In this document: one piece after another, positions 14,834 through 46,885 of the stretch | Layout of the letters: each line of letters begins with the position of its first letter | Position numbering within the stretch: position 1 is the stretch's first letter | Notes under the pieces: generated by a model | Told to the model about the DNA's origin: nothing | Seen by the model: the letters and a program-made list of their open reading frames with translations, nothing else | Databases searched by the model: none | Translations under genes and position numbers: made by a program | Assembly: GCA_021159185.1 (NCBI GenBank) | Contig: JAGGSH010000011.1 | Coordinates: 12,307-76,306 of the forward strand | Direction of reading: 5' to 3' | Origin: a bacterium | GTDB lineage: Bacteria; Patescibacteriota; Minisyncoccia; Moranbacterales; UBA9337 | Length of the DNA: 64,000 nt

Positions 14834-15052
14834 TTACGCTTTTATATGCCTGAGTATGCAAGATCCGAATACCGTTTTTCCTCTCAAAGTTTTCACATTA
14901 AATGAAACTTTTTCTCCATTAGCTTCAACAAGGATATCTGAAGAACCAAATGGATAAGCTGAGCAAACGATCCCTTGGACTTCTCTGCCACTTCCCATGT
15001 CCATAATCAGCACCATTTGTCCTGGGGAAAATCCTTTTTCTTTTCTTGCCAT
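14834..15052 (-). CDS. Hypothetical small protein (72 aa)
   Basis: ORF with an AGGAGG-like RBS (aaaaaactaaaggaggattt) upstream and a terminator downstream. No recognised family. Confidence 0.4.
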   Translation of the reverse strand: MARKEKGFSPGQMVLIMDMGSGREVQGIVCSAYPFGSSDILVEANGEKVSFNVKTLRGKTVFGSCILRHIKA

Positions 15053-20321: not shown

Positions 20322-22154
20322 TTATGAATTATGGCTTATAGCTTCACCCACCAACTTATCAAACTCTTCTTTTTCAATAGTTTCTTTTTTCAGCAAAGTC
20401 TCGGCGATTTTATTTAAAATCCCCCTTTTTTCATTAATAATTTTTTCCGCAGTTTGCCTGGCCTCTTCAAGAAAGCGGGAAACTTCCATGTCAATTTCCA
20501 AAGCGGTTTGCTCTGAGTAATCTTTTTCTTCGCTAATTTCCTTTCCTAGAAAAACTAACTCTTCTTTCTTGCCGAAAGTTCTGGGACCGAGCCGGCTCAT
20601 TCCATAACGAGTAATAAGATTTCTGGCCATGTGAGTGGCTCTTTCCAGATCGTTAGACGCGCCCGTAGTTATATCACTGAACACGATTTTTTCGCTCACA
20701 TATCCTCCCAGCAAGATAGCCAGCTCATCAATAAAATAAGCTCTGGACTGGAGATACTTGTCTTCAGTGGGAACAGCCATAGTATATCCTCCCGCCTTGC
20801 CGCGGGAAATAATGGAAACTTTTTGAATCGGGTCGGCGTGAGAAAGGCTGGCGGTTACCAAAGCGTGTCCGGCTTCGTGATAAGCCACTATTTTCTTCTC
20901 TTCTTTACTCATTATTTTACTTTTGCGTTCCGGCCCCATAATAACTTTTTCAATAGATTCTTTTAACTCTTTTATTCCTATAGTTTTTTTCTCCCGGCGC
21001 GCGCTAAGTATAGCCGCTTCATTAACAAGATTGGCCAAATCCGCTCCGGAAAAACCGGGAGTGCGTTGAGCAATAACTTTTAGCTCCACTCCTTTTCTTA
21101 AGGGTTTGTTCTTGGCGTGAATTCTAAGAATGGCTTCTCTCTCCTTAATATCGGGAAGATCTATAACCACTCTTCTGTCAAACCTTCCCGGACGCAAAAG
21201 CGCTGGATCTAAAACATCGGGGCGGTTAGTGGCTGCCATTACAATTACATTAGTGTCAGTTTCAAATCCATCCATTTCCACCAAAATTTGATTTAAGGTT
21301 TGTTCTCGTTCGTCATGTCCGCCGCCCAGACCGGCTCCGCGATGCCGCCCCACCGCGTCAATTTCATCAATAAATACGATAGACGGAGCGTTTTTTTTGG
21401 CCTTCTTGAAAAGATCGCGCACGCGGGAAGCTCCCACGCCCACAAACATTTCCACAAACTCGGATCCGCTGATATTAAAGAATGGAACTTCAGCCTCTCC
21501 CGCTACTGCTTTCGCCATTAAAGTTTTTCCCGTTCCCGGCGGTCCCAATAAAAGCACGCCCTTGGGAATTTTAGCGCCGACAGCCAGAAATTTTTTGGGA
21601 TGTTTTAAAAATTCAACGACTTCCAATAATTCTTCCTTAGCTTCTTTAGCTCCAGCAACATCTTTAAAGGTAGTTTTCTTCTTTTTGTCTTTGGGGTCGG
21701 TCATTCTAGCGCGGCTCATCCCGAAAGAGAGCGCTTGAGTATTCCCTCTTTGAGCTTGGCGCATCATAAACCAGATAAATCCGGCAATTAAAATGAATGG
21801 CAGTAAAAATGGCAAAATAAGCCCCGCCCAAACGGCGGCGGAAGATTCTTTCTTTACCTCAACTTTTACGCCTTTGAGTTTTTCTTTATCCACGCCGTAA
21901 TTATCCAACGATTCGCCTAGAGAACTTTCCATTTCTTTGCTTGTTTTTTCTTTTTCTCCATTATTAAGTTCAATTTTCAGCTCATTTCCCTCAATAATAA
22001 TTTCTTTTACTGCTCCCTCATTTATCTGGCTAACCAACTGGCTTAATGAGGTATCTTCATATTTCTGGGCGGGCGCGTTATAAAGCACCAGTATTCCCGA
22101 AACAAACAAAAAAAACAAAATAATTAATCCTATATTTTTTAATAATTTATCCAT
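20322..22154 (-). CDS. ftsH: ATP-dependent zinc metalloprotease FtsH
   Basis: Two N-terminal TM, Walker [19 protein letters not shown], a second region of homology, and the HEAGHALV zinc motif. Confidence 0.95.
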
Positions 22155-22244
22155 TATATTATCTTAATTTTCTCTATATCCTCTCCTCCTTTACTAAGGG
22201 GGAGATGTCCGTAGGACAGAGGGGGTTTCTTAAATTTAAAAAAT

Positions 22245-23306
22245 CTACATTTTCACTACGCTCACTTTATCACCTTTCTTTTCTATTTTCAACCCTTTGA
22301 ATTCTATTCTTTGAATTTTACTTTTTTTACTTTCAATTATTTTAATAATTTCTTCAATGTGGCAGGTCTCAATGTCGGTTAAATCTGCTCTGATCTGAAA
22401 AATCATCTGGCGCAAAACTTGCCTTTGCATTGCCGGATGTAATTTTTGAAATTTTCCCGCGCTAAAAATAATTTTATCCGTCTTAGTCGCATTTATTTGT
22501 TTAATCATTCGCTTCCCATTCGCGGACAAGCAATCATAATCGTCAGCGACAATCAGCGACATATTAGCTAAAGTTTTTTTAATATTAGGATTGTAATTTT
22601 TTTCCAGATAAGGAATTAACCGATGGCGGATTTTATTGCGGGAGATCTTAATATCTTTATTGGTAATGTCAGTTTGATATTTTAATTTATTTTCTTTAAG
22701 ATATTCTAAAATTTCTTTTCGGCTTGTATTTAACAACGGACGAATAATAATATTCTCCCCCTCCCCTTTGGGGAGAGGGCTGGGGTGAGGGGTTTTCGGT
22801 CTCATAACTGCCAACCCTTGCAATCCTGCTCCTCGCAAAACCCGCATCAAAACCGTTTCGGCTTGGTCGTCCCGATTATGCGCCACCGCGATTAAATTAT
22901 ATTTTTTTCTTTTCCTAATTTTCTCAAAAAAATCATACCGAATCTCCCGCAACCAATTCTCCAAATTCTCCCCCTTTGGAAAAGGGGGGTTAGGGGGGAT
23001 TTGAAAAACCTTCGCATTCTCGTAAATTTTATTTTTCGCAATACTTAAAACGCTAACCCCCAACTCGTACTTTCCTGCCAACTCTCTCACAAACTCCTCA
23101 TCCCTATCCGAATCCTTTCCCCGCAAACCGTAATTCACATGGGCAATGTATAATTTAAAATTATATTTAGGCGCCAGCTTTACCAAAATATCCAAAAGAC
23201 AGGCGCTGTCCGGCCCGCCCGAAACACCGACAATAATCCTTGAGCCTTCCTCCCAAAGCCCATACCGCCCGGAAAAACTTTGAATTTTTTTAACCAAACT
23301 TTTCAT
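22245..23306 (-). CDS. tilS: tRNA(Ile)-lysidine synthetase TilS with two in-frame repeat-derived insertions
   Basis: PP-loop IIVGVSGGPDSACLLDIL and HNRDDQAETVLMRVLRGAGLQGLAVMRP. The inserted segments IPPNPPFPKGENLENW and KTPHPSPLPKGEGENII are encoded by family-2 repeats at 22965-23012 and 22741-22800. Confidence 0.85.
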   Translation of the reverse strand: MKSLVKKIQSFSGRYGLWEEGSRIIVGVSGGPDSACLLDILVKLAPKYNFKLYIAHVNYGLRGKDSDRDEEFVRELAGKYELGVSVLSIAKNKIYENAKVFQIPPNPPFPKGENLENWLREIRYDFFEKIRKRKKYNLIAVAHNRDDQAETVLMRVLRGAGLQGLAVMRPKTPHPSPLPKGEGENIIIRPLLNTSRKEILEYLKENKLKYQTDITNKDIKISRNKIRHRLIPYLEKNYNPNIKKTLANMSLIVADDYDCLSANGKRMIKQINATKTDKIIFSAGKFQKLHPAMQRQVLRQMIFQIRADLTDIETCHIEEIIKIIESKKSKIQRIEFKGLKIEKKGDKVSVVKM

Positions 23307-23430
23307 TTTGTGTTTTTTCTATCTACCGCTACTGCGCGATCGCGCAGTAGCGGTAGATAGAATTAAGCCGGATAAGTTAATTTTAGAGGCATCTATAGAT
23401 GCCTCTATTCTCTATTTTAAATCTCTGATT

Positions 23431-23991
23431 TTATTTCAGATCGTTTTTGATAATCTTTGCCACTTTTAAAACTGTTTCATCTAACTTTCCCTCTTCATTC
23501 TCCACGCTATAATCAAAAGCGTTTTTGTTTTTCGTCCAGCCTTGGGCGTACTTTATTCTTTTTTGTATAAATTTTTCCGAAACTCTGCCTCTGTTTCTGA
23601 TCCTTTTTTCAATAATATCCAAAGGAGCGTTAATCAATATGGCTGGTATTTCCGGCATCATTTTTTTCAGGTTCAGCACTCCCTTATAATCAACTTTCCA
23701 GATGACAATCTTTTCACTATTTCTGGCGCGCTTAATTTCTTTATGAGTCACGCCGTAAAAATTATTATTGTCTTCTTCCGCCCATTCAAAAAAATCCCCG
23801 TTCTTTACGCCTTTTTTAAATTCTTCTTTGGGAATGAAATAATAAGGCCGGCCTTGGGATTCTCCCGGGCGCATTTCCCGCGTGGTAGTGGTGATAACCC
23901 TTTCAATGTCAAGATATTTTTTCAATCCTTTAATGACGGAATCTTCCCCCGCGCCGGACGGACCGGAAATGATAAAAACGTTGGATTTCAT
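23431..23991 (-). CDS. gmk: Guanylate kinase homolog with a degenerate P-loop (GPSGAGEDS instead of GxSGxGKxT)
   Basis: ITTTTREMRPGESQGRPYYFI and FFEWAEEDNNNFYGVT align with the GMK GMP-binding region, but the Walker-A Lys and Ser/Thr are replaced by Glu and Asp. Confidence 0.7.
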   Translation of the reverse strand: MKSNVFIISGPSGAGEDSVIKGLKKYLDIERVITTTTREMRPGESQGRPYYFIPKEEFKKGVKNGDFFEWAEEDNNNFYGVTHKEIKRARNSEKIVIWKVDYKGVLNLKKMMPEIPAILINAPLDIIEKRIRNRGRVSEKFIQKRIKYAQGWTKNKNAFDYSVENEEGKLDETVLKVAKIIKNDLK

Positions 23992-24075
23992 ATTTTTTAT
24001 TTGCTTTAATTTTAAATTATTTCTATAATCTGATTATAGCCATAATTTTCTAAAAAAGGCAAAAGCTATAGTTTT

Positions 24076-24618
24076 TTGTATATGTATAACCTTGAAAAAA
24101 ATACTTTTAAACAAAATTACAATGCGTATGATAACGCATATGTAAAAAATAGCAGTGAGAAAATCTGGGAAAAATTTAAAAAAGGACTAAATAATGAAAA
24201 AGAGAAGAAGTTAACGGAATTTGAAAAAGAAATAAAAAAGGGGGTGCCGTTTGAAGATGCTGACGATGTAGTGGAAGAAGTAAGAAGAATTGTTCCCCCT
24301 ATATTGTCCGTTCCCAAGAAATACTTTAATAAGATAAAAAGCAAAGGTTTTATAGAGCCGAAGCCGGACTGGACTGGATATAGATCAGTAGCGGCTGTAT
24401 TGGGAAGATCCCCCTATACTCCAAAAAATGAAGAAAGGATTTATTTTAAATTAAGCCCTCAAGTTAAGGTTGAACCTAGGTTTATGCCTAAAAATAAAAT
24501 AAGGAAAACAACAAGCGAACTAAATAAAGATGACGCGATGTTTTACGGAGTAGTTCTTGTTTCAGACGATCAAAAACGGCTTCGTTTAGGACATGACTTA
24601 AAACAAATCAGCAATTAA
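24076..24618 (+). CDS. Hypothetical protein (180 aa)
   Basis: ORF in AT-rich host-like codon usage with no recognised motif. Confidence 0.4.
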   Translation: MYMYNLEKNTFKQNYNAYDNAYVKNSSEKIWEKFKKGLNNEKEKKLTEFEKEIKKGVPFEDADDVVEEVRRIVPPILSVPKKYFNKIKSKGFIEPKPDWTGYRSVAAVLGRSPYTPKNEERIYFKLSPQVKVEPRFMPKNKIRKTTSELNKDDAMFYGVVLVSDDQKRLRLGHDLKQISN

Positions 24619-24640
24619 AAGCGCGATATTTCATATAAAT

Positions 24641-26158
24641 TTACTTAGCGCTTTTTTTATTTTTTTCTGGCTTTGCTAGATCTGGCGTAGCCAGACTTTT
24701 CTTTTCTCCTGCCTTTTTCTCTATGACTTTCTTTACTTTTTTCTTTTCCTCTTTCTTTCTTGCTTTCTTACTTACTGCCTGTTGCTTATCGCTTACTTCT
24801 TTATGCTTACTTTCTGCTTCTTTCTTCTTACTGCTCTTATCTTTAACCAGCGCCAATCCCATCCTATGATTTTTCGGCTCTATAGAAAGAATTTTCCATT
24901 GGTAGGATTCGCCTTCTTTTATCACATCGTCCATTCTTTTGCCGGGATACATTTCCTGAAACTCGCTCACATGCGCCAGTCCGTGTATGTTTTTGTCCAG
25001 ATATACAAAAACTCCGAAGCGGTTAATTTTATCCACTTTGCCTTTCACAACATTGCCTGTCTCATATTTCTTTTCAATATTTTCCCATGGGTCTTTTTCC
25101 AGCGCTTTTAAAGAAAGAGAAACGCGCATGTTATTAATTCCAATAATCTGGGCCTTAACTATGTCTCCTTTTTTTATAACCTCTCTTGGGTCATTAATTA
25201 ATTGCCATGCTAATTCTGAAATATGCACCAGCCCCTCCAGTTTATCATCTTCTTTGCCTGAATCTTTTTTGGATGGAGGAAAAAATTTCACAAAAGCTCC
25301 GAAGTCTACTACTCCGCTCACTTCGCCCTCAACGATATCCCCCGCTTTCATTTTGGCGACAGTTTCTTTCTCTTCACTGCTCATAACCGCTTTCTCGCTA
25401 ACAATCAGTTTTTCCTCATCCCTGTCAGCGCTGATGATTTTTACTTTGAGCTCGCGGCCGATTAAATTTTTAAGCATTTCCAAAATTCTGCTCTTGCTCC
25501 CGTCTTCCACGCGGGGATAATTTTTGCTGGATAACTGGGACACGGGCAAAAAGCTTGATATTCCGTTAATTTCAACTATTAATCCTCCTCTGTTAGCGTC
25601 AAGCACTTTCGTAATAATTGTTTTTTGGGCGTCTCTTTTGTATTCTATGTCTTCCCAAGCTTTTTCATAAGAAGCTTCTCTAACGGAAAGTTCCATATAA
25701 CCGCTTTCATCTCCTAAACTAGTTAAAGTCGCGCTGACCGTATCGCCTTCTTTTATTTTCCCGTCAATATTCAATCCGTCTTTCATTTCTTTTCCTAAAA
25801 CTATTCCTGTTCCCAATGGGCCTAAATCAAGCAAGATATAGCTAGAGGAAATTTCAATCACCTTTCCTTCCAAAACATCTCCCACTTCCGGAATTTCTAT
25901 AGGATTCTCTTTCAGTAATTCTTCCATAGAAAGTTCATTTTTCCCTTTCTTGCCTGCCTGCCGGCGAGGCAGGCTTTTTTCAGACGAGCTTTTTTTTACT
26001 TTTACTTTTACTTTTACTTTCTTTTTCTTTATGCTTGTTTCTTGCTTCTTTTTCCTTCCCAGTTCTCGCTTCTCGCTTACTTCTTTTTTCTTCCCGCTTA
26101 TTTCTATTTTATCCACCTCTTCCGCCAGTTTGTCTAAAATGTTTTTTTTGCCAGCCAT
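24641..26158 (-). CDS. rpsA: 30S ribosomal protein S1-like, multiple S1 domains with Lys-rich terminal extensions
   Basis: Four or more S1 repeats (GDVLEGKVIEIS..., GDIVEGEVSGVVDFGAFV, GDIVKAQIIGIN..., GNVVKGKVDKINRFGVFV). The N-terminal region contains an in-frame 27-bp GC hairpin repeat. Confidence 0.8.
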   Translation of the reverse strand: MAGKKNILDKLAEEVDKIEISGKKKEVSEKRELGRKKKQETSIKKKKVKVKVKVKKSSSEKSLPRRQAGKKGKNELSMEELLKENPIEIPEVGDVLEGKVIEISSSYILLDLGPLGTGIVLGKEMKDGLNIDGKIKEGDTVSATLTSLGDESGYMELSVREASYEKAWEDIEYKRDAQKTIITKVLDANRGGLIVEINGISSFLPVSQLSSKNYPRVEDGSKSRILEMLKNLIGRELKVKIISADRDEEKLIVSEKAVMSSEEKETVAKMKAGDIVEGEVSGVVDFGAFVKFFPPSKKDSGKEDDKLEGLVHISELAWQLINDPREVIKKGDIVKAQIIGINNMRVSLSLKALEKDPWENIEKKYETGNVVKGKVDKINRFGVFVYLDKNIHGLAHVSEFQEMYPGKRMDDVIKEGESYQWKILSIEPKNHRMGLALVKDKSSKKKEAESKHKEVSDKQQAVSKKARKKEEKKKVKKVIEKKAGEKKSLATPDLAKPEKNKKSAK

Positions 26159-26554: not shown

Positions 26555-27304
26555 ATGTTAGAAAAAGAACTTCAAGAAATCGGGCTTAATGAAAAAGAAG
26601 CCAAAGTTTATTTAGCTTCTTTGGAATTAGGGCAGTCCACTGTCCAAAAAATCTCCCAAAAAGCGGGAGTTAACCGGGCCACCGCCTATTTTATAATTGA
26701 AAGCCTGGCGAGAAAAGGACTCGTAAGCAGTTTTCATCAGAACAAAAAACAATTTTTCATCGCTGCCGATCCAAACAGGTTAAGCGAGCTTTTAGAACAA
26801 CAAAAAGAAAATATCAAGAAGAATGAAAAAAAGCTAAAAGAACTTCTTCCTCAGCTGCAATCAATGGATGCTAAGCAAAAAAATCGTCCGGTGGTTAAAT
26901 ATTATGAAGGGAAAGAAGGCCTTATTTCAATACAAGAGGAATTTCTTAAGTCAAGAAAGGGCATTGCGAGCATGGCTTATTCTGTTGACGCTGTAAATAG
27001 AGTATTTACAAACAATGAAATGTCTAGATTTAGAAGAAAAAGATTAAATAAGGATATTAAAAATAAAGTTATTTATACTTACAAAAAAGGTATTTTAGAA
27101 AGCGACAAAACTAGTAAAAGAAAAAAGGTGCCTTTTAGTAAATTTCCCATAACTTGTGATATAGCGATTTACGATAACAAGATAAGGCTTGCGTCGCTGG
27201 GAAAAAGATTGACAGGTATTATTATAGAAGATAAGGAATTGGCAGATTCAATGAAAGCAATTTTTAATTTAGCCTGGGAAGCTGCGGAAAAATACCAAAA
27301 ATAA
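26555..27304 (+). CDS. TrmB-family (winged-HTH) transcriptional regulator
   Basis: The N-terminus LQEIGLNEKEAKVYLASLELGQSTVQKISQKAGVNRATAYFIIESLARKGLVS matches the TrmB HTH domain. Confidence 0.6.
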   Translation: MLEKELQEIGLNEKEAKVYLASLELGQSTVQKISQKAGVNRATAYFIIESLARKGLVSSFHQNKKQFFIAADPNRLSELLEQQKENIKKNEKKLKELLPQLQSMDAKQKNRPVVKYYEGKEGLISIQEEFLKSRKGIASMAYSVDAVNRVFTNNEMSRFRRKRLNKDIKNKVIYTYKKGILESDKTSKRKKVPFSKFPITCDIAIYDNKIRLASLGKRLTGIIIEDKELADSMKAIFNLAWEAAEKYQK

Positions 27305-27578
27305 AAGGGCATCTGAATCTATATCTATTGATCCTGATGCCCATTTTTCCTTTGTCGCCGGCTATTTATTACCGGCAACACTAACAAGATAACCTCCTAG
27401 TCGCACACTTCTTTGTTCCTCCTTTTTTTAGATTTTTCGGGAGCATTCACAAGAGAATGTTTCAAGTTTTTCCTCCTACTAAGCGACGGCTTTAAAAGTC
27501 CGCCGCTTTTCGGCCGGCCAAACTCTCTACAAGTCTCCCATGGTTGACCCCTCCCCCGTAAAAGAACTGCTTTGGATG
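27300..27578 (-). ncRNA. Candidate ~280-nt structured non-coding RNA of unknown class, on the minus strand
   Basis: Flanked by a consensus-like promoter (TTGACA, 17 bp, TAGTAT at 27613-27585 on the minus strand) and the terminator at 27307-27348. It is GC-rich and hairpin-rich, for example ccggtaataaatagccgg and ggccggccgaaaagcggcgg. No ORF over 60 aa. Checked by eye against RNase P, tmRNA, SRP and 6S signatures without a match. Confidence 0.25.
27307..27348. terminator. Bidirectional rho-independent terminator (gggcatc...gatgccc with T-runs on both strands)
   Basis: Hairpin directly after the stop at 27304. The reverse complement is also followed by TTTTATTTTT. Confidence 0.5.
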
Positions 27579-27584
27579 TTTATG

Positions 27585-27613
27585 ATACTAGCAGATTAAA
27601 CAACTTTTGTCAA
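27585..27613 (-). promoter_or_regulatory. Sigma-70-like promoter (TTGACA, 17 bp, TAGTAT) on the minus strand
   Basis: The reverse complement reads ttgacaaaagttgtttaatctgctagtat. Confidence 0.45.
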
Positions 27614-27891
27614 CAGCCGTAAACATTTTTTTAGAATTTCTCAATTTATTCTTAAAATAAAGGAAAAGAGCTAAAAATTTATTTTTGAATAAGATTAACA
27701 AATAAATTATCCATACTAATATACTTTTTTTTATTTTTAGCATTTATATGCTATCGCTTATAAGTGCTAACTAGATAGTTTCCATTTAGCATCTTAAAAT
27801 AAAGTCTGCCTATTTAAACAAGATTTATTTTTGTTCTTTTCTTTATATAAAGCAAGAATTAGGAATTATCAAAATTAAGTGTTAAAAGGGC

Positions 27892-27919
27892 TTGACAAAT
27901 TTTGCCAGTCTGCTATACT
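27892..27919 (+). promoter_or_regulatory. Sigma-70-like promoter TTGACAAATTTT...TATACT, near-identical to the one at 56940-56967
   Basis: cttgacaaattttgccagtctgctatactgg. It drives a leader of about 790 nt upstream of the small-ORF operon. Confidence 0.5.
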
Positions 27920-28716
27920 GGCCTAACGCTGAAAAAGAGAGAAGTTCCTCAAGTTAAAAAGATAGTAATATTTTTCCAACACTGAATAACGCGCTGCTGA
28001 TCTGAAAACGGAAACAGCAAAAAACAGTCAGCCAAGCCGGTTATTTGGTTGAACGCGATCCTTAAAGAATTTGTCAGGCTTTAAATAAATTTATAATTGG
28101 CCTTAACAGAGCGAAAAAGGATTTAGCTCAAAAGGACGAAGTATTATTTTTTAATCCGGTAACATCGTGAAATTCCAGAACATTAACAATTTAACCCTCG
28201 CTTTTTTCCGTTAATTCCTAGCGGGAAGAAGCGAGGGATCCCTCTAAAACTTTGTAAGTAGAGCGTCTCAAGAAATTTGGATAAGGCGTATTTTCCAGCG
28301 AAGTTTTTACGCCCAATTGGCTCAAATTATTATTTGCGAAGTTTTAGAGGGAGGATAAGAAACGACGCAATTATCCTACCTGCAACTACCTCTGTATTGT
28401 TTGGAAAGTTAACAAACAATATAAGTAGAAATGGCAATGTGCCATGGCAAACAATGGGGCGATAGTCTGTTGTTTGTCTCAGTTTTCTGGATAGAAAAAA
28501 CTATCGGCCAGAAAACTGAATTGCGTTGTGGCTTACGAGCGGCGCCGTTGCCAAGTTCGCTCATTGCTTTTTTTAAAAACGCTGCCATGGGAACACAGCG
28601 TAAAGAAGCCGCTTTGAATTAAAAAGGTTTCATGTTCCCCTTTTTAAAAATTCCATAATTTTTTTGTGGAATTTTAGAGGGAAGTAAAAAATTCAAAAAA
28701 AGGAGAAGCAAAAAAA

Positions 28717-28944
28717 ATGAAAAACAAAAGCGCAAGCATTATTATGAGGAAAAGCTTTATTGGGATCATAATCTCATTATTAAGAGAGGACGATCTCGAA
28801 GCAGCCCAACTCATGGGCTACTGGGGTGCAGAGGGCAATGAGGAGGAGTACGATAAGTGCTTCGAGCGCTCTGAAAAACTTGAAACGGTCATCAGGCTCC
28901 TCGGTGAGTTATACCTCGAGGAGAAAAAGGAGGAGATGTCATGA
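28717..28944 (+). CDS. Small acidic hypothetical protein (75 aa), first gene of a foreign-like small-ORF operon
   Basis: Strong SD (aaaaaggagaagc). Codon usage is GAG/CTC/TAC/GGC-rich, unlike host genes. Its stop overlaps the next gene's start (ATGA). Confidence 0.5.
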   Translation: MKNKSASIIMRKSFIGIIISLLREDDLEAAQLMGYWGAEGNEEEYDKCFERSEKLETVIRLLGELYLEEKKEEMS

Positions 28945-29303
28945 AAATGATATACAGAAAAGAAATGAGTTTTGATGTTGATTCAGACTCAGGAGACAGG
29001 GTTGAATTGACATCAGACCGAGGTGAATTATTCGGTGTAAATGTTGATGAAATCAATGATCACACCCGCACGAATGCACGTTGTAGTAAGTGCGGAAAGA
29101 TAAAAGATGGATATGGTAAAGGCGATTTTATTGTGTCAAGTATCATCAATGTTAACACAATGATTCCCGTTAACTTTAGTAAAAAGGTTAGCGAGGTAAT
29201 TGCAAAAACCATACAAGATAGCAGAGATCGCAATTTTATTTGTGACGATTGCATAAATCTTTTGAGTAAACTTTCAGAGGAGGATGTTGCACATGAGAGA
29301 TAA
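28941..29303 (+). CDS. Hypothetical 120-aa protein with a CxxC...CxxC zinc-ribbon-like motif
   Basis: CSKCGK...CDDCINLL, translationally coupled to the upstream ORF. Confidence 0.5.
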   Translation: MKMIYRKEMSFDVDSDSGDRVELTSDRGELFGVNVDEINDHTRTNARCSKCGKIKDGYGKGDFIVSSIINVNTMIPVNFSKKVSEVIAKTIQDSRDRNFICDDCINLLSKLSEEDVAHER

Positions 29304-29484
29304 AAAAACCGAGGCGAAAATCCGGCGGGAGAGGAAGAGACTCGCCCGCCAAAAAATAAAAGCTTCCCCAGAATATTTTCTGGGGATTGAGGACAGTATT
29401 ATTCCCGAAATGTGCGACTGTGGAAGAGTCGCCATGGAGGGAGTCGGCCAGTGCTTAGGATGCTTTAGGCGCTTGTCGTCATAG
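29293..29484 (+). CDS. Small basic protein (63 aa) with a CxC...CxxC motif
   Basis: Start MRDKKTEAK is chosen because GAGGAGG sits 9 nt upstream. It has an Arg/Lys-rich N-terminus and CDCGRVAMEGVGQCLGC. Confidence 0.45.
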   Translation: MRDKKTEAKIRRERKRLARQKIKASPEYFLGIEDSIIPEMCDCGRVAMEGVGQCLGCFRRLSS

Positions 29485-29687
29485 AATTCAGCCCAATCCC
29501 ATGGCTTAAAACCGGGACTGTAATATTTCGGGGAAGCACCGAAGTGCTGGTTTTTCAAAATTTCCGGCGGTCATTAAAAAATCTCGGACAAGAAAATTAA
29601 CATATTTCCTTGTCCTTCCAATCAAGATCGTAAAATGGTTTGCGGTTTTGACGGGAAGAAAAATAGACAACCAAAGGGAGGTGTAAT

Positions 29688-29909
29688 ATGGAAAGCATAT
29701 TTGGTTTGATTGAGATGATGGCAAAATGGGTATGGTCATTTTCTGTAGGAAAGTACATTGTTACCTTTACATTAACCTCGATGATAATCTGGCTGACCGT
29801 GATTCTTTTTGAGTCTCCCAAGATGACAGTGGAGAGAAAGGAAAGAGAATTAAGGGATGCAGAAAGAATAGCAGAAAGATATAAGGCATTGAGAAAGGAG
29901 GTAAAATGA
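29688..29909 (+). CDS. Small single-TM protein (73 aa) with a charged coiled-coil tail (holin-like or membrane anchor)
   Basis: SD gggagg. One hydrophobic helix, IVTFTLTSMIIWLTVILF, then ERKERELRDAERIAERYKALRKEVK. ATGA overlap with the next ORF. Confidence 0.45.
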   Translation: MESIFGLIEMMAKWVWSFSVGKYIVTFTLTSMIIWLTVILFESPKMTVERKERELRDAERIAERYKALRKEVK

Positions 29910-30175
29910 AAATGAAAAAGAAAAAAAATTGGAAGCCTCGTCTCCCGCGGGAGACGATTGAAACTCTCCGCCATCGCGGCGGAGCGCACGGAAGCCCCAA
30001 AGGAAAAAAGGGCTATAGCCGCCAGCGGGAAAAATCCGCTTGGCGCAAACAGATGGATAACAACTCCGTCTGTTTTTTTATTTCCCAAATCTCGACAAAC
30101 CGCTTCTGGTGTGATAAGCTGGGGATATTGAAAAATTATTTGGTTGCAAGAAGACTATTTGCCAATAAAACATAA
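29906..30175 (+). CDS. Small highly basic protein (89 aa)
   Basis: SD aaggagg. KKKKNWKPRLPRETIETLRHRGGAHGSPKGKKGYSRQREKSAWRK. Translationally coupled to the previous ORF. Confidence 0.45.
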   Translation: MKMKKKKNWKPRLPRETIETLRHRGGAHGSPKGKKGYSRQREKSAWRKQMDNNSVCFFISQISTNRFWCDKLGILKNYLVARRLFANKT

Positions 30176-30274
30176 ATTCAGATGCGTCTGAAAAAGTTGT
30201 AAAAAACAACAAAAGTTTCAAGTACACTTGAAACTTTTGAAGAATTGAAAAAGTATAATTGGTGAGCTGTTTTA

Positions 30275-30337
30275 TTACGCGTAGATTCCGGATATTTTTT
30301 CTTTCGCTGTCACTTTAGAAAAAATTCCGGAATGACA
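30275..30337. repeat. Family-1-related element (tacgcgtagattccggatat...aaaattccggaatgaca)
   Basis: Third copy of the unit also seen at 200-260 and 19125-19188. Confidence 0.65.
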
Positions 30338-30437
30338 TGGGGAAAGTAAGCGAAAAACTGTAAACAACGCCGTGAAATATAACACAAAAATCTATTCGTA
30401 TATTCGTATTTTAATTAGTAATCAGTAAAGAGTTACT

Positions 30438-31097
30438 ATGAACATTCAATATTATGGGCATTCTTGCTTTAAAATAACTGCCAGGCCGGCTGGGCGGGCT
30501 ACTGAAGAAGTGGCGGTTTTTATGGATCCTTTTGATAAATCCATCGGACTTAAGCCTCCTTTCGGCCGGGCGGATATTATTTTTATTTCCCACCAGCATC
30601 CCGACCATAATAATGTTTCAGCATTGAAAGGAAGTCCCATAATTATTGACACGCCGGGAGAATATTCGGTAAAAGAAATCAGCGCTATCGGGATAGATTC
30701 TTTTCATGACGAAAAAGAAGGCGCGGAGCGGGGACGCAACACGATTTTCGTTTTGGAAACTGAGAATATCAGGCTGTGCCACTTGGGAGATCTAGGAACT
30801 GATCTTAGCTTAAAACAATTGGAAAAAATGAACGGCGTGGATATTCTATTTATTCCCGTTGGCGGAAAATATACTATTGATGGAAAAAAAGCGGCGGAAA
30901 TTGCCCGCAAAATTGAACCGGCTATGATAATTCCCATGCATTACAAAGTGCCGAATCTAAAAATAGATATAACTGATGAGAAAATGTTTTGCTCTGAAAT
31001 AGGAAGCTGTCCCAAAGAAAAAATTTCTAAAATAAATTTAAAGAAAAAAGATTTGGAGGGAAAGAGTTTGGAAGTGATGTTGATGGAGGTGAAATAA
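30438..31097 (+). CDS. Metallo-beta-lactamase-fold metal-dependent hydrolase (UPF0173-like)
   Basis: YYGHSCFKI...IFISHQHPDHNN (HxHxDH motif) and MIIPMHY. Confidence 0.7.
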   Translation: MNIQYYGHSCFKITARPAGRATEEVAVFMDPFDKSIGLKPPFGRADIIFISHQHPDHNNVSALKGSPIIIDTPGEYSVKEISAIGIDSFHDEKEGAERGRNTIFVLETENIRLCHLGDLGTDLSLKQLEKMNGVDILFIPVGGKYTIDGKKAAEIARKIEPAMIIPMHYKVPNLKIDITDEKMFCSEIGSCPKEKISKINLKKKDLEGKSLEVMLMEVK

Positions 31098-37323: not shown

Positions 37324-38037
37324 TCACGAAAGCGATTCTTGGTAATTTTTGAGTTGAAATATCGTTTCTTTTTTTAAATTTTGCCTGATCCAATTTTTTT
37401 CTTTTTCGTTTACCAATTCTCCCAATCCTTCTAAAAGCTTTTTGTTTGGCATTTTTTCAATGGCTTTGACGCAGTCCGCCAAATATTCCGCCGTATTTTT
37501 TCCGGTTTTTTTCTTTATTGCCTCCCCGTCAATATCCCATTTATTTTTCGCGAAAAAATAAATATCATACACATCGCGCGAAACCATAAACTTCCTGTCA
37601 ATAAGCGCTACCAATTTCATTGCGAACGCGTAACTTTGCTTGGCGGCTAAAACCGAAATACCAGCGTATTCTTTAATTTCATAATATTTTTTCAAGTTTT
37701 TCGCGCCGGTTCTGATTGATATTTCAATTTTAATATTATGGTCATCCTGTCCATATGACAAAAGCGTAAAAATTGTGTGCCGTTTAATTCTCGCGTCTTT
37801 AACGGTTCCATATTTTTCCGCTATTTTTTTTATTTTTCCTAAAACCTTTTCATAATCAAAATCTTCTCTGTCATCCAGTAAATCAAAATCCAAGTCCACG
37901 GAAAAGCGCGCCAATCCGTAAAAAAAATAAGCGCAAGTCCCGCCCTTAAAACCCAAAAGGGGCGCTAATGTGGTAGTGGTGTATATTTCCCTGATAATTT
38001 CACCCATTATTAAACGATGCTTTTGTTTATTGAGCAT
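37324..38037 (-). CDS. Nucleotidyltransferase AbiEii/AbiGii toxin family (DUF1814), type IV TA toxin
   Basis: GFKGGTCAYFFYGLARFSVDLDFDL, the AbiEii signature. The start overlaps the upstream antitoxin gene by 11 nt. Confidence 0.7.
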   Translation of the reverse strand: MLNKQKHRLIMGEIIREIYTTTTLAPLLGFKGGTCAYFFYGLARFSVDLDFDLLDDREDFDYEKVLGKIKKIAEKYGTVKDARIKRHTIFTLLSYGQDDHNIKIEISIRTGAKNLKKYYEIKEYAGISVLAAKQSYAFAMKLVALIDRKFMVSRDVYDIYFFAKNKWDIDGEAIKKKTGKNTAEYLADCVKAIEKMPNKKLLEGLGELVNEKEKNWIRQNLKKETIFQLKNYQESLS

Positions 38038-38635
38038 ATTTCTGTTCGTATATTCTTAAGTGTTTTACTAATTGCTTGCTTTGATAAATTTCGGCCATTT
38101 CAAAACATTTTTTCCAATCAAGTGAATCTAGATTGTCAAAATAATAATCCCCAAGCAAATATATCGTATCCAAAAAAGCTCTTTCGGGTAAAGCTATACT
38201 GAAATTATCTTTGTTTATAACACCAGCAGGATTATATAGAACCGATTTCTTCAAGCGGCGAAAAGCGAACTTATTTTTTCCTATTTGCAGATTTTTTGAC
38301 CAAGGAGCGGCAACAAAAATTGTTTCGTAATGTTGAAAAATCATACCGGCATCACGCAAAACCGTTTCAAAACTGATGTACGAAGGAGAATATAAACTGG
38401 TTGCCAATTCTCTTGAATTATACTCCATGGTTTTTGCGTAAACTCCCCGCCAAAGGCGAAAAAGATAACCTTTTTTTGTGTAATAATAAATTTTAGTTTT
38501 AAGCTTATTCGGACTGGTTTCTCCCCAAATTAAAGCCAGCTCTTTAGAGGTAAAAACTGTTTTTAAACTTCCATGCAATTTCAATATGGAATTATCCATT
38601 CTTATAATGCAAGTGTTAATTTTTAACACTTCCAT
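38027..38635 (-). CDS. AbiEi-family antitoxin/transcriptional regulator
   Basis: FTSKELALIW...YYYTKKGYLFRLWRGVYA...YSPSYISFETVLRDAGMIFQ resembles the N- and C-domains of AbiEi antitoxins, and it sits upstream of and overlapping the toxin. Confidence 0.6.
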   Translation of the reverse strand: MEVLKINTCIIRMDNSILKLHGSLKTVFTSKELALIWGETSPNKLKTKIYYYTKKGYLFRLWRGVYAKTMEYNSRELATSLYSPSYISFETVLRDAGMIFQHYETIFVAAPWSKNLQIGKNKFAFRRLKKSVLYNPAGVINKDNFSIALPERAFLDTIYLLGDYYFDNLDSLDWKKCFEMAEIYQSKQLVKHLRIYEQKYAQ

Positions 38636-43621: not shown

Positions 43622-43635
43622 AAAGTTTCATTCTG

Positions 43636-43707
43636 TGCCCTCACTAGGAATCGAACCTGGATCTCAGACTTAGGAGGTCTTTGCTCTATCCATTGAGCTA
43701 TGAGGGC
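43636..43707 (-). tRNA. tRNA-Arg (anticodon CCT)
   Basis: Acceptor GCCCTCA/TGAGGGC, D-arm GCTCAATGGATAGAGC, anticodon loop CTCCTAA, T-loop GGTTCGATTCC. Confidence 0.7.
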
Positions 43708-43735
43708 TTGTTATGTTATGTTATATTATATAATG

Positions 43736-43807
43736 TGGAGATAGAGGGATTTGAACCCTCGACTTCTTGCATGCCATGCAAACGCTCTACCCCTGAGCTA
43801 TATCCCC
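43736..43807 (-). tRNA. tRNA-Ala (anticodon GGC)
   Basis: Acceptor GGGGATA/TATCTCC with the G3:U70 identity pair, D-arm GCTCAGGGGTAGAGC, anticodon loop ATGGCAT, T-loop GGTTCAAATCC. Confidence 0.75.
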
Positions 43808-44023
43808 AAAACAAGATTTCATTATTTTAATCATAAGCGAGTTAAAAGAGTTAGTCAATTTAATCTCAAAAGCGGAATATAATCTTTTGCGGTAAAAATA
43901 AATGGAATAACTTGTGTATAACTCTCTAAATGATTCTTTTAAACAGCTTATCCACAGATTTAAGGGCTTTGAGGAAAATAAAAAAGGGGACCGCGCTGAA
44001 TTTAGCGTGATTCCCCTAATAAA

Positions 44024-44941
44024 CTAGAAGTCAAAGAATAGCTCGTTGATTTTTTTGATCACTCGCTCACTTTCTTCACGCGAGCAATATTCTTGCTTTT
44101 GTAAATAGTCCTCCTTTACATTTTTATAAGAATTACATTCCTTATTGTATCCCTTAGATCTGACGATTTCAAAGAGACTATTTGGCCATAACCCGTTTAT
44201 TGAGCGCAGTTTCTCCAGTACATCAGCTGGATCAATCTTGCCCGGACGAGGTTCGCCGAATAAATCAAAAGCCAGAAAATAGACAAACTCCGCATATTTC
44301 GGATGACTTTCTATATAGGGCATCATAAATTTCAACTCGCCCATGTCCGCTTCCGGAATTTCAAGCACAACTTTATCCCACAATGCTTTGACAATAGCGG
44401 AATATCTGTAAACTCCAGCCTTCGCAAAAATATACAGAAAATTGTTTAATTTATGATTCAGAACTGATCCCCCGCATGTTAATTGGTTGTAAGAAAACAA
44501 TACCGTATTTCTGATCAGCTGAATGATAACTTCTTGCGGTATTGTTTCCAGCGCTTTTGTCATTATTGCCTGCGGTTTATCGGGATTGATTTCCCTAAGC
44601 ATGCAAAGCCAATCCGCTCTTTCATCTATGTTTGCCGATTTGATATTCGCAAACAATACTTCAATCCTAATCAATTCCGCTAACTTATCGGCGTATTGCT
44701 GTTTTGCACTTTCTTGCCCCATTCTTATCTTATAGATTGTTTCAATGATTACATCTTGCGATGCGCCGATTTTGGCCACATCGTAAGCGTATAGTTCATT
44801 ATCGTTAGATAAACATTTTTTCAAAGCTTCATCAATTTCCTGAACAGTAATTTGATCCCCTTTATCTGCTCTGTTTATTAAACTTCTTATCAATCTGTTG
44901 CTATCCATCCTCATTTTGGCGTAATCTGTAAATTTTCCCAT
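44024..44941 (-). CDS. Hypothetical protein (305 aa)
   Basis: ORF next to the tRNA cluster with no recognised family. Confidence 0.4.
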   Translation of the reverse strand: MGKFTDYAKMRMDSNRLIRSLINRADKGDQITVQEIDEALKKCLSNDNELYAYDVAKIGASQDVIIETIYKIRMGQESAKQQYADKLAELIRIEVLFANIKSANIDERADWLCMLREINPDKPQAIMTKALETIPQEVIIQLIRNTVLFSYNQLTCGGSVLNHKLNNFLYIFAKAGVYRYSAIVKALWDKVVLEIPEADMGELKFMMPYIESHPKYAEFVYFLAFDLFGEPRPGKIDPADVLEKLRSINGLWPNSLFEIVRSKGYNKECNSYKNVKEDYLQKQEYCSREESERVIKKINELFFDF

Positions 44942-45162
44942 TTTCCTTTCCTCCTGCTTGGGTTTAAATTTTTAAAGAACTTCAAGGAAATTTGCCGCTC
45001 AAAAATCCTTGACTTGCAAATTTATCATAAATATGCTATTATGTAAAAAGTATCCTCCATTTTTGGAGGATATAGAAATAATGCTTTATATAAGCAGTTA
45101 TTTGATTTGTGCGGTATAAATTAAATTTCAGCTAAAAATATTCCGGTTTTTATTTTCTCTAA

Positions 45163-45178
45163 TGTTCCACGTGGAACA
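45163..45178. promoter_or_regulatory. Palindromic site TGTTCCACGTGGAACA (copy 1 of 6)
   Basis: Perfect 16-bp palindrome with a CACGTG core. Confidence 0.55.
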
Positions 45179-45207
45179 ATATAGTAGAAACTAAAAACGC
45201 GATCAAT

Positions 45208-45223
45208 TGTTCCACGTGGAACA
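45208..45223. promoter_or_regulatory. Palindromic site TGTTCCACGTGGAACA (copy 2 of 6)
   Basis: Perfect palindrome, 45 bp from copy 1. Confidence 0.55.
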
Positions 45224-45437
45224 ATGAAAAATTTTCTTCCTTTAGAAAAGGGAGATGTCTAGAGGACAAGGGATTTGAAAAAATTCAGTTAATTATCCTT
45301 CTTTCTTTTTCAGCGCTTATTTAACGAAGTATTTCAAATCTTCCTTAAATTCCTCCCAGTCATCCAATGGGACAGGCTTTTTTCCAAAAAGGGGAGAATA
45401 ACTTTCTATTTTTTCCAAGGGAGGAAGGAAATATAAA

Positions 45438-45453
45438 TGTTCCACGTGGAACA
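45438..45453. promoter_or_regulatory. Palindromic site TGTTCCACGTGGAACA (copy 3 of 6), ~107 bp upstream of the TrmB-like gene start
   Basis: Perfect palindrome in the operator position relative to the proposed start at 45560. Confidence 0.55.
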
Positions 45454-45559
45454 TTATAATAAAAACTCCCCCACTCCCTCTTTAAAAAAGAAGGAAAGGA
45501 ATAAGATTGTTCCACTATCCAAAGGCGGGCAGGCATGGAACAATTTGAACTTCAAAAGC

Positions 45560-46276
45560 ATGGACATAACAATATTAGAAGATATTGGCTTTACTAAGGC
45601 GGAAATAAAGGTTTATTTCGCGCTTTTAGAGATGGGGAAAAGCGGCGCCGGAATGATTATTTCCAAAACAGGTTTGCAAAATTCGGTGGTACATATGACT
45701 TTAAATAGGCTTTTAGAGAAAGGAGTTATTTCTTATGTAAAAAAAGGGCGATTTAGGGAATATTATCCGCAAGATCCAAATACGATTTTGGAAATCATAG
45801 AAAAGAAAAAAGAAAGTTTTGAAAAATTGCTTCCGGAAATTTTAGCCAAACAAAAACCGATTGAAAAAAACGAGGCAGAAGTGTTTAAGGGTATGAAAGG
45901 GCTTAAAACCGCTCTATATGATTTAATTGATGACGCGCAAAAAGGCGATGAATTCTTATTTTTCTCCTTTTTTGCCCAAAACCCGGACGATTTTGACGAA
46001 GTTTATGATTTTTACAAAGAATTCGCCAAAGATCGCGAAGAATATGGCATAATTACCAAAGGAATTGCTCCGGCAAGCATTAAAGATAAATTTGCCGGAA
46101 GAAAACTGCGTAACATTACTTTTGTTAATTTCCCTATACCGACAAATATCTCTGTTTTTAGAAATAAAGTGCTAATGACGCCATGGGAGGAAGAAAAAAT
46201 AACTTTCTTGATCCGATCACGCCAGTTAGCCGAATCATTTAGAGCTTATTTTTACTCCATTTGGAGTAAAAAATAG
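45560..46276 (+). CDS. TrmB-family (winged-HTH) transcriptional regulator, second paralog
   Basis: ITILEDIGFTKAEIKVYFALLEMGKSGAGMIISKTGLQNSVVHMTLNRLLEKGVISYVKKGRFREY. The internal start MDITILED is chosen because the longer track ORF begins inside palindrome copy 3. Confidence 0.55.
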   Translation: MDITILEDIGFTKAEIKVYFALLEMGKSGAGMIISKTGLQNSVVHMTLNRLLEKGVISYVKKGRFREYYPQDPNTILEIIEKKKESFEKLLPEILAKQKPIEKNEAEVFKGMKGLKTALYDLIDDAQKGDEFLFFSFFAQNPDDFDEVYDFYKEFAKDREEYGIITKGIAPASIKDKFAGRKLRNITFVNFPIPTNISVFRNKVLMTPWEEEKITFLIRSRQLAESFRAYFYSIWSKK

Positions 46277-46292
46277 AATAAAAAATAAAAAT

Positions 46293-46308
46293 TGTTCCAC
46301 GTGGAACA
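46293..46308. promoter_or_regulatory. Palindromic site TGTTCCACGTGGAACA (copy 4 of 6)
   Basis: Perfect palindrome 17 bp after the regulator stop. Confidence 0.55.
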
Positions 46309-46421
46309 ATAAAAGTACATAACCATAAAGATAAAACAATCGTTTATTTTTAATGGTTTTTTTATAATAAAGTATCTACGAACGATTTATTTAAAATGTC
46401 TTACTAAAAAACAAATCAAAT

Positions 46422-46437
46422 TGTTCCACGTGGAACA
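46422..46437. promoter_or_regulatory. Palindromic site TGTTCCACGTGGAACA (copy 5 of 6)
   Basis: Perfect palindrome. Confidence 0.55.
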
Positions 46438-46520
46438 ATTTGATGTATATAATGTAATCAATAGTGACATATTGCCTTTTTAAACCTCTTTTGGATTATA
46501 TTTTTTGTGATTTACCATGA

Positions 46521-46573
46521 TGTCATTCCCGCGAAACTTGTCCTCGGTTCCGATCGGGGAGCGGGAATCTAGA
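46521..46573. repeat. Family-1 MITE-like element (short unit)
   Basis: tgtcattcccgcgaaacttgtcctcggttccgatcggggagcgggaatctaga. Confidence 0.65.
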
Positions 46574-46704
46574 CTTCGGATAATCTCTTCGAGCTTTCCA
46601 GAATGATAATAGATACTCCATTGGCTTGCTATGGGAGAAAAATTCATTATAAAATTAAAATAGTCATAATATTCTAAGCTGTAAAAATGAATACACATTT
46701 AAAA

Positions 46705-46720
46705 TGTTCCACGTGGAACA
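46705..46720. promoter_or_regulatory. Palindromic site TGTTCCACGTGGAACA (copy 6 of 6)
   Basis: Perfect palindrome about 165 bp downstream of the integrase gene's 3' end. Confidence 0.55.
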
Positions 46721-46885
46721 TTAAGTCGTGAAACTCAAAATTTACCAACACTTTAATGTAAAATCTGTGGATAAGTTGTTTAAAAAAATATTATATAAAT
46801 TTCTTATAAGTTTTATGTCAGTTATTATTTTAATATTACCCGAGCTTCTTGACAGAATGTCTTAAAAATGGTGTGATATACTGGA

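Follow-up and report, generated by a model that had tools for sequence, protein, structure and literature searches.

The RNase III sites of the phage T7 early region are intercistronic stem-loops of a polycistronic early operon. In a different field, lineages that are poor in Shine-Dalgarno (SD) sequences and still retain an anti-SD pose an open problem, with experiments so far in Bacteroidia only. Bacteroidia ribosomes sequester the anti-SD, and rpsU is the single strong-SD client known (PMC7797042, PMC9976891, PMC13000453). In Parcubacteria, the CCUCCU motif is reported missing in about half of the group, and bS21 is absent in many (PMC9297842). Here we describe a locus that shares features with the T7 early region and with rpsU, found in a Moranbacterales UBA9337 genome fragment (GCA_021159185.1, contig JAGGSH010000011.1, positions 12,307-76,306). 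This fragment of 64,000 nt is referred to as the window. The locus holds five small open reading frames (ORF1 to ORF5) downstream of a gene for a TrmB-family winged-helix regulator, and on balance we consider it likely that these ORFs are a payload, varying by lineage, within a chromosomal module conserved among Moranbacteria-like candidate phyla radiation (CPR) bacteria.

The module consists of a promoter, a leader RNA, two hairpin-led units with overlapping genes, and a closing terminator. It lies in a 3.1-kb segment (27305-30437) of a low-GC fragment (GC ~38% over the window); this segment has no long ORFs and separates the TrmB gene (26555-27304) from a metallo-beta-lactamase (MBL)-fold hydrolase gene and then gyrA; features lie on the plus strand unless stated otherwise. 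In the best-supported description, the framework runs from the TrmB gene through promoter, leader, unit hairpins, and extended SDs to the terminator and frequently includes ORF5, and the payload is a set of lineage-variable small proteins. Our main comparison is L003, a contig of a related organism (~89% nucleotide identity across MBL-gyrA) found via a 73%-identical ORF2 homologue, which holds all five genes in unchanged order; an exact-sequence look-up also placed the window locus in two further metagenomes, L001 and L002. A genome scan with TrmB yielded L004 (Candidatus Moranbacteria RIFCSPHIGHO2_02_FULL_40_12b), L009 was reached through an ORF5 homologue, and L013, L113, L068, L112, and L086 came from a promoter-pattern metagenome scan followed by an nhmmer filter for leader homologues. 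The module is present in at least nine distinct CPR (Moranbacteria-like) loci, and TrmB, an invariant promoter, and the leader co-occur across the nine that we count (the window, L003, L013, L004/5, L009, L113/L136, L068, L112, and L086).

The sharpest feature of the module is how its genes start. A strong SD precedes 5/5 module ORFs in the window, as opposed to 2/33 core genes of at least 150 aa (Fisher p = 4e-5), or 3/33 when the start may lie anywhere within the first 60 codons. Using gene-caller coordinates for L003, L006, and L009, we found strong SDs in 26/29 module genes and 3/29 flanking genes (p = 9e-10). Each of the five window SDs is complementary over 6-9 nt to the canonical 16S tail, CACCUCCUUU, from which the host's own 16S tail may differ. 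Across loci, exact complementarity to this tail covers at least 7 nt in 36/46 module starts and at least 8 nt in 23/46, mostly 4-9 nt from the start codon. The extended SDs reach AAAGGAGGUG, and because the motif extends to GGAGGUG, the canonical 16S tail can be argued to exist. Elsewhere the window genome is essentially SD-free, which agrees with reports of SD-poor Parcubacteria. With both strands searched and in-frame internal positions excluded, the only other SD-led window genes were 14834-15052 and 44024-44941, both on the minus strand, so that the module holds 5 of about 7 such genes; SD-like pentamers are ~9x denser on its sense strand than elsewhere. The original prediction, which was made from the sequence of this region and described a five-gene operon, had seen the SD sites without recognising what their use signifies in an SD-poor genome.

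This pattern is what the rpsU paradigm of Bacteroidia describes: an SD-poor host in which ordinary genes lack SDs and those of a small, specific set have extended ones, complementary to the canonical 16S tail. The paradigm also involves an anti-SD that bS21, bS18, and bS6 sequester in most ribosomes; the window and the retrieved loci contain no rRNA gene. SD-free ordinary genes combined with extended SDs on a small set imply a separate translational regime. The two systems differ in that the module belongs to CPR/Parcubacteria, its SD-led genes encode orphan small proteins rather than ribosomal proteins, each locus has 3 to 11 or more of them, and each unit carries a hairpin that mimics an SD/anti-SD pair.

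We identified this hairpin by comparing the 90 nt 5′ of every small ORF in all loci. It is a stem of 17-20 bp with an anti-SD-like 5′ arm, CCUCUCU..., and an SD-like 3′ arm, ...AGAGGGA(A). Between this stem and the start codon come 15-30 nt of A-rich spacer and then an extended SD, and immediately 5′ of the stem there is often another hairpin, of the GGCAAGAAA...UUCUUGCC type. A covariance model (R1) built from 15 copies gave 27 matches at E<1e-3, spread over 10 loci and without exception on the ORF strand; 23/27 copies have an SD-led ORF 11-61 nt 3′ of the hairpin. The 64-kb window has only two matches, before ORF1 and before ORF4. The first (57.6 bits, E = 1e-11) lies in unit leader IG-A (28530-28716), which contains HP2 (28635-28691), the A-rich spacer, and the ORF1 SD. 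The second (51.4 bits, E = 3e-10) lies in unit leader IG-B (29485-29687), which contains a weak terminator-like hairpin (29524-29548), HP1 (29586-29615), HP2 (29610-29667), and the ORF4 SD. Hairpin cells are paired in 93.6% of cases compared with 68.7% in shuffles, 107 have changed on both sides compared with 34 in shuffles (0/500), and the covariation score is 0.745 compared with 0.07-0.27 for slid partners. G-U pairs are frequent in the cassette hairpins, which points to RNA on the sense strand.

The T7 early region resembles the module in having a strong promoter followed by small genes that each stand behind a long, near-perfect sense-strand hairpin. Unlike T7, the module shows no sequence relation or phage context, the base of its hairpin mimics an SD/anti-SD pair, and the hairpin always leads into an A-rich spacer and then an SD. 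We also considered an RNA thermometer and rejected it, given stems of 17-20 bp at -20 to -40 kcal/mol that leave the true SD uncovered.

Upstream of the units lies a conserved, structured leader RNA of ~435 nt (27921-28355) that contains no ORF. It includes hairpin P4 (28195-28237) and ends in a long hairpin (arms 28239-28260 and 28331-28352; 3′ end GUUUUAGAGGGA), which over 28239-28352 is an expanded form of the cassette hairpin. The leader is ~93% identical to that of L003, exceeding the gyrA region (89%) and the TrmB gene (77%), while neighbouring genes have synonymous divergence (dS) of 0.3-2.2. Its minimum free energy is -128 kcal/mol (z = -5.8 against shuffled controls), and homologues are present in 9 loci. 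Mapping the minimum-free-energy structure of the window sequence onto a 9-sequence MAFFT alignment, we counted 40 pairs changed on both sides compared with 23 in shuffles (0/500), and slid controls performed about half as well. The best-supported helices are 5, 8, and 14, which correspond to the helix of the optional block-2 domain, a GGC/GCC helix, and hairpin P4. Covariation thus lends the predicted leader structure moderate backing. In Rfam, the whole window at the gathering threshold gave 5 tRNAs only, a search of 27300-30450 at E<=10 returned only sub-threshold chance matches, and the related loci gave nothing relevant. Riboswitch leaders and OLE RNA, as catalogued in Rfam, resemble the module leader in that a 5′ leader of 330-435 nt is conserved in sequence and structure and is followed in some loci by an intrinsic terminator and a small ORF. 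The module leader differs from them in matching no Rfam family even at E<=10 and in having a 3′ domain that varies between sub-types.

A spacer (28356-28529) separates the leader from IG-A. It is not conserved in L003, where cassettes occupy that place, and it carries terminator-like and overlapping hairpins at 28446-28478 and 28479-28519; it may be what is left of a lost cassette, or it may be an attenuator. In four other loci, a conserved Cys-rich peptide of 21-24 aa (MSQCCTCRRGGKGCQYGCPRR) is encoded directly after the leader and an intrinsic terminator hairpin (L004 4971-5033; L009 4685-4750; L068 ~3374, minus strand; L086 1437). This layout of leader, terminator, and peptide resembles a riboswitch, and the peptide is absent from the window and L003.

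The leader is preceded by a strong sigma-70-type promoter with an extended -10 element (27892-27920; TTGACA-16-(TG)CTATACT, that is, TTGACA-16-TGCTATACT) that scores 11/12 against consensus and lies ~590 nt 3′ of the TrmB gene. Its pattern, TTGACAAAT-N9-CTGCTATAMTG, is unchanged in 9/9 distinct module loci, and in all nine a TrmB homologue stands about 600-750 nt upstream on the same strand wherever the contig covers that DNA. The TrmB gene itself lacks an SD. Its product belongs to Pfam PF01978 (E = 4e-16, 59 bits with a cut-off of 25.6), and it shares with TrmB regulators a winged-helix domain, here invariably linked to promoter and leader. It falls far below the NCBIfam equivalogs TrmB, TrmBL1, and TrmBL2 (35 bits against cut-offs of 530-650), and sugar sensing cannot be assumed for it. 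Compared with its L003 counterpart (4662-5411), the gene has a ratio of nonsynonymous to synonymous divergence (dN/dS) of 0.065 and a saturated dS of 2.2, where gyrA has a dS of 0.33. Its GC content at third codon positions (GC3) stays at ~0.34 while host GC3 ranges from 0.38 to 0.6. Saturated dS and constant GC3 suggest that the regulator gene may have undergone allele replacement or transfer.

Further signals surround the promoter. Three TGACAAAT/TGACAATTT boxes are found at 27892-27901 (in the -35 region), 28068-28079 (inverted), and 28180-28190 (just 5′ of P4), and all nine loci keep the last of these (TTGACAATTTA). The boxes are candidate binding sites for a protein, perhaps TrmB. The spacer between the TrmB gene and the promoter is 82-87% conserved with L003 over 27399-27613. 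It contains a promoter-like site on the minus strand (27613-27585, TTGACA-17-TAGTAT) and a bidirectional terminator hairpin (27440-27463), and could encode a small RNA of ~130 nt convergent with TrmB.

Turning to the genes, ORF1 (28717-28944) encodes an acidic protein of 75 aa (pI 4.7; dN/dS 0.13), ORF2 (28941-29303) a zinc-ribbon-like protein of 120 aa with two CxxC pairs (0.18), ORF3 (29293-29484) a protein of 63 aa with the basic N-terminus MRDKK (0.27), ORF4 (29688-29909) a single-pass membrane protein of 73 aa with a charged C-terminal helix (0.22), and ORF5 (29906-30175) a basic protein of 89 aa (pI 11.1; 0.07 for the conserved core, 29906-30049). Ratios were calculated by the Nei-Gojobori method between the window and L003 orthologues, and for the same pair gyrA gives 0.075 and the MBL-fold gene 0.14. 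Each ORF carries 12-36 synonymous differences, and all indels within the ORFs are in-frame. The range of 0.07-0.27 together with the in-frame indels shows that all five ORFs are genes, protein-coding and under purifying selection. Much of the original prediction was borne out here: the ORFs lie at the stated positions, the ATGA stop-start overlaps at 28941 and 29906 are both present, an SD precedes every ORF, the product descriptions hold (acidic, CxxC, single transmembrane (TM) segment with charged tail, very basic), and the conservation in a related genome that it had named as a check is found for all five.

The claim that the five genes form one translationally coupled chain fared less well. 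We place the ORF3 start at 29293, where MRDKK matches the homologues (the alternative at 29284 would give 66 aa), and the overlap with ORF2 is then 11 nt. A conserved, structured element of 203 nt separates ORF3 from ORF4, so that in place of a single coupled chain there are two hairpin-led units, ORF1-2-3 and ORF4-5, with overlap and translational coupling inside each. At the 3′ end, an intrinsic terminator (30047-30083; an 11-bp stem and seven T residues) lies inside the end of ORF5 and closes the module, and homology with L003 stops near 30090. ORF5 is conserved in its first ~48 aa only, and codons 48-59 are the terminator hairpin and T-run read as protein; several ORF5 homologues end in ..FF.., residues read off the T-run.

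None of the five proteins has a match in Pfam, NCBIfam, PHROGs, or PADLOC beyond zinc-knuckle noise, PHROGs giving no match better than E = 0.01, in line with the earlier view that they belong to no recognisable family and may be novel. ORF1 and ORF4 have homologues only in the window's own lineage and L003. Only 4 clusters in 5.8 billion proteins belong to the ORF2 family, whose Cys pairs are conserved, and the ORF2-ORF3 pair recurs in L134 and L136/L113 with its Cys ligands kept. ORF3 has CxC and CxxC motifs and a four-Cys C-terminus; aligned with its L003, L134, and L113 partners, D3, K4, K5, and the Cys residues are invariant. ORF4 has one hydrophobic segment (Kyte-Doolittle 19-residue maximum 2.08). 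ORF5 has 22 close homologues, and a search of 1.84 billion representatives found 116 clusters of its family (at 50% identity), nearly all of them stand-alone proteins of 40-90 aa. The family has the motif MKKKK..RLPxEAVExLRHRGGAHxSxKGKKGYxRxxEK and no Pfam match. The ORF5 start overlaps the upstream stop by 4 nt in five loci (the window, L005, L009, L133, and L135). The partner gene before it encodes a TM protein at four loci (the window, L003, L009, and L135), a Zn ribbon at L005, and a soluble protein of 110 aa at L133. AlphaFold2 predicts the ORF5 protein as two helices joined by a Gly/Lys loop (pLDDT 74), for which Foldseek returned 0 matches and a PDB profile search a best E = 0.7.

Several family assignments were considered and set aside. 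The RLPxE..L N-terminus of ORF5 recalls a ribbon-helix-helix (RHH) protein, for which no beta-strand and no hydrophobic second helix are predicted. The CGR...CxxCFR pattern of ORF3 recalls ribosomal protein S14 and finds no Pfam support. ORF2 matches the Cas12f/TnpB TNB domain at E 0.003-0.006 over the CxxC knuckle only; reading the locus as the remains of an IS200/IS605 or OMEGA element, its leader serving as omega RNA, is also ruled out by ORFs that are intact and selected and by the lack of TnpA or a TnpB remnant. Nothing supports a role in metal homeostasis, which the many Cys4 proteins had suggested. Two other protein families recur in the module and are absent from the window: a ~100-aa Zn-ribbon family (CVVCGG..NPKF...RFKPFL) and a ~205-aa Zn-finger family that is often found 3′ of an ORF5 homologue. 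They occur at L005 8131-8436 and 11133-11747, L009 6124-6447 and 7239-7871, L068, L135 358-708, and L012 204-830, and neither these families nor the Cys-rich peptide match Pfam, NCBIfam, PHROGs, or PADLOC.

Comparison with L003 shows that payload content changes between close relatives. Besides the same five genes, L003 has ~6 additional ORFs, and a copy of IG-A or IG-B precedes each of them. Two further L003 copies of IG-A are >90% identical to it and each precedes a different ORF; four further copies of IG-B likewise each precede a different ORF and carry compensatory changes. One L003 unit, consisting of IG-A, a 68-aa Zn ribbon, a broken ORF3 copy, and IG-B, mirrors the arrangement of IG-A, ORF1-ORF2-ORF3, and IG-B. 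This second ORF3 copy (~7785-8030), which is broken between two frames and has another Zn-ribbon gene in front of it, is evidence of unit duplication or replacement between IG-A and IG-B leaders. Turnover by recombination between conserved unit leaders would fit L003. Flanking genes are S1 and MBL-gyrA in the window and L005, gyrA and S15 in L003, tig-clpP and iPGM in L009, and groEL in L136. Proteostasis genes recur among these neighbours (tig-clpP, L009 731-2628; groEL, L136 2697-4304; ftsH and S1, window 20322-26158), which may be coincidence in small genomes.

The original prediction also described codon usage foreign to the host, and this was only partly correct. Against contiguous core-gene windows of equal length (core-gene GC3 = 0.37 +/- 0.04), GC3 is elevated in ORF1 (0.60, p<0.001), ORF3 (0.56, p=0.012), and ORF5 (0.56, p=0.02), whereas ORF2 (0.32) and ORF4 (0.43) do not differ significantly and are host-like. 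Of the codons said to be frequent, GAG, CTC, and TAC are enriched, whereas no enrichment is seen for GGC or AGG. SD-like GGAGG/AGGAG strings account for half of the GAG/AGG codons; with codons in those strings removed, GC3 of ORF1, ORF3, and ORF5 stays elevated at 0.51-0.56.

We propose the following for how the module could work. The adjacent TrmB protein would control the promoter, and the whole stretch would be made as one regulated transcript. The hairpins would act at the RNA level, on the sense strand, either in processing and stability, as the intercistronic sites of phage T7 do, or as an anti-anti-SD that frees the true SD. The module would be translated via SD/anti-SD pairing, unlike nearly all other genes here. 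For the basic ORF5 protein, the most plausible role is to bind RNA or the ribosome as part of the framework, and the Zn-ribbon, membrane, and acidic proteins may be exchangeable cargo, with cassette content changing through duplication and replacement by recombination between the conserved unit leaders. The novelty lies in this expression architecture and in three uncatalogued elements: the TrmB-linked leader, the 5′-UTR hairpin motif, and the ORF5 family of 116 clusters. The general kind, a regulator-linked operon with cis-acting RNA elements, is already known. In the literature, we found nothing on TrmB in Moranbacteria or Patescibacteria and nothing relevant on structured intergenic RNAs of CPR bacteria, and the locus is undescribed in the searchable library.

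Several points weigh against this proposal. Operon structure, transcription start, processing, and control by TrmB are all deduced from sequence, and the role of ORF5 is a guess from its composition (RGG/KGKKGY) and position. The terminator-like hairpins at 28446-28478 and 29524-29548 lie inside the transcription unit and could split it. A DNA-level role for the unit hairpins is conceivable too, but their G-U pairs and strand bias speak for RNA. The association of hairpins and ORF5 is not strict, as L068 has hairpins without ORF5 and L010 has ORF5 without detectable hairpins. If the lineage were one that lacks CCUCCU, the SD-like strings would have to serve otherwise. Finally, no function can be assigned to the proteins; the AlphaFold2 model of ORF2, from a 2-sequence alignment, is unusable (pLDDT 35), and the ORF5 model has no structural neighbour.

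Other explanations of the five ORFs have to be weighed against the module proposal. That they are chance frames in a long non-coding RNA could be entertained for a region so rich in conserved structure in which no ORF has a protein family, yet we find it barely credible given the purifying selection and in-frame indels, the Cys ligands kept in distant homologues, the breadth of the ORF5 family, and an extended SD at the correct spacing before every start. The original prediction favoured a cassette derived from a phage, plasmid, or defence island, with a lysis, regulatory, or toxin role, in which case the small genes would have served an integrated or degraded element in early, regulatory, lysis, or anti-defence roles, and their SD use and GC3 would be marks of a foreign source. 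The elevated GC3 of ORF1, ORF3, and ORF5 is consistent with this, as are an SD regime unlike the host's, content that differs between close relatives, and a TrmB GC3 that is constant whatever that of the host. ORF5 homologues elsewhere have an SNF2 helicase, an AAA_5 ATPase, and methyltransferases among their neighbours, and in the window another TrmB paralogue, which is SD-led, lies next to tRNAs and a tyrosine recombinase. Early regions of viruses and plasmids, moreover, typically encode small proteins of the Zn-ribbon, TM, and basic kinds. We nevertheless regard a mobile origin as unlikely. The search of phage databases that had been proposed gave no match in IMG/VR (ORF5 profile, TrmB, and leader) or INPHARED (blastn and tblastn), and PLSDB (tblastn with the ORF5 core), PHROGs, and PADLOC were negative as well. 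No integrase, replication gene, or structural gene lies inside the module in any locus, no locus gene list contains an integrase, terminase, capsid, or portal gene, and no rep or mob genes are nearby. PADLOC gave only the zinc-knuckle match of ORF2 to Cas12f TNB (E = 0.003) and matches of TrmB to Csa3/CasR at the level of the helix-turn-helix (HTH). The flanks are housekeeping genes, the S1 ... MBL-gyrA site is the same in the window and L005, the link between TrmB and leader is constant, and the leader and hairpins are strongly constrained across lineages, which is not expected of decaying foreign DNA.

Two narrower explanations account for the unit structure rather than the origin of the locus. 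Toxin-antitoxin-like pairs, with ORF4 as a small membrane toxin countered or regulated by ORF5 and ORF2/ORF3 as a second pair, would explain two- and three-gene units with 4-nt or 11-nt overlaps and the small TM protein that precedes ORF5 in the window, L003, L009, and L135, and cassette-like variability is typical of toxin-antitoxin loci. We consider such pairs improbable, since no toxin-antitoxin family was found in Pfam, NCBIfam, or PADLOC (only ToxN at E = 0.15), the ORF5 partner is not always a TM protein, the ORF5 model lacks a predicted RHH, HTH, or AbrB fold, and the units would sit in a long leader-controlled transcript instead of being autoregulated from their own promoter. An integron-like array of the CALIN type, in which the hairpins are recombination sites that capture promoterless cassettes behind a common promoter, appears more improbable still. 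The module resembles such arrays in its variable small ORFs of the same orientation behind one strong promoter, in palindromes between units that are conserved in structure and variable in sequence, and in the duplication and exchange of cassettes seen in L003. However, it has no integrase, attC cores, or extrahelical-base architecture. No IntI or other recombinase adjoins any locus, the only tyrosine recombinase of the window is 17 kb off, and IG-A and IG-B contain no R′′/R′ cores (RYYYAAC ... GTTRRRY); a regular-expression search for attC cores over 27305-30437 on both strands gave one spurious pair within the leader with 6/14 arm complementarity. The palindromes lie in the 5′ UTRs of the units and are near-perfect, strand-specific, rich in RNA-type G-U pairs, and 11-61 nt before an SD, as expected of a 5′-UTR RNA element, and whole leaders of ~200 nt are conserved rather than palindromes alone, which fits homologous recombination.

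Returning to the conserved module with a variable payload, a bolder version can be formulated, which we hold only tentatively and think doubtful as it stands. In a CPR lineage whose ribosomes ordinarily start without SD pairing, the module, with its near-perfect extended SDs and mimic hairpins, would be a translationally insulated platform, translated only when the 16S anti-SD tail is available, with ORF5 setting or sensing that state and the leader representing a new class of large cis-regulatory RNAs. We speculate that the tail could be free in a particular ribosome state, stress, or growth phase, and that the ORF5 protein could be a ribosome- or RNA-binding factor of a new type. Apart from this version, the analysis establishes orphan small ORFs of a CPR genome as real and selected, and exposes a sharp within-genome split in initiation signals with the extended SDs concentrated in the module. 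If the proposal is true, a multi-gene, SD-dependent module in Parcubacteria would be a second independent system, beside rpsU, for asking what free anti-SD tails are for, and it would offer a handle on regulation in organisms not yet grown alone.

Three other places in the window are worth recording. The SD-led gene at 14834-15052 (minus strand) is an orphan ORF of 72 aa whose strong SD is AAAGGAGG. On the minus strand at 37324-38635, beside recQ, lie an AbiEii-type nucleotidyltransferase gene and its overlapping upstream partner, an AbiE-like toxin-antitoxin or abortive-infection pair; the AbiEii gene is 7 kb from the module and unrelated to it. The stretch 43635-47704 contains tRNA-Arg, tRNA-Ala, the SD-led orphan gene of 305 aa on the minus strand (44024-44941), the second TrmB paralogue (45437-46276), which is SD-led and 28% identical to the first, and the tyrosine recombinase (46886-47704). 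GC drops to 0.31-0.34 around this stretch until ~50 kb, and we suggest that it is probably an integrated element with its own TrmB-type regulator.

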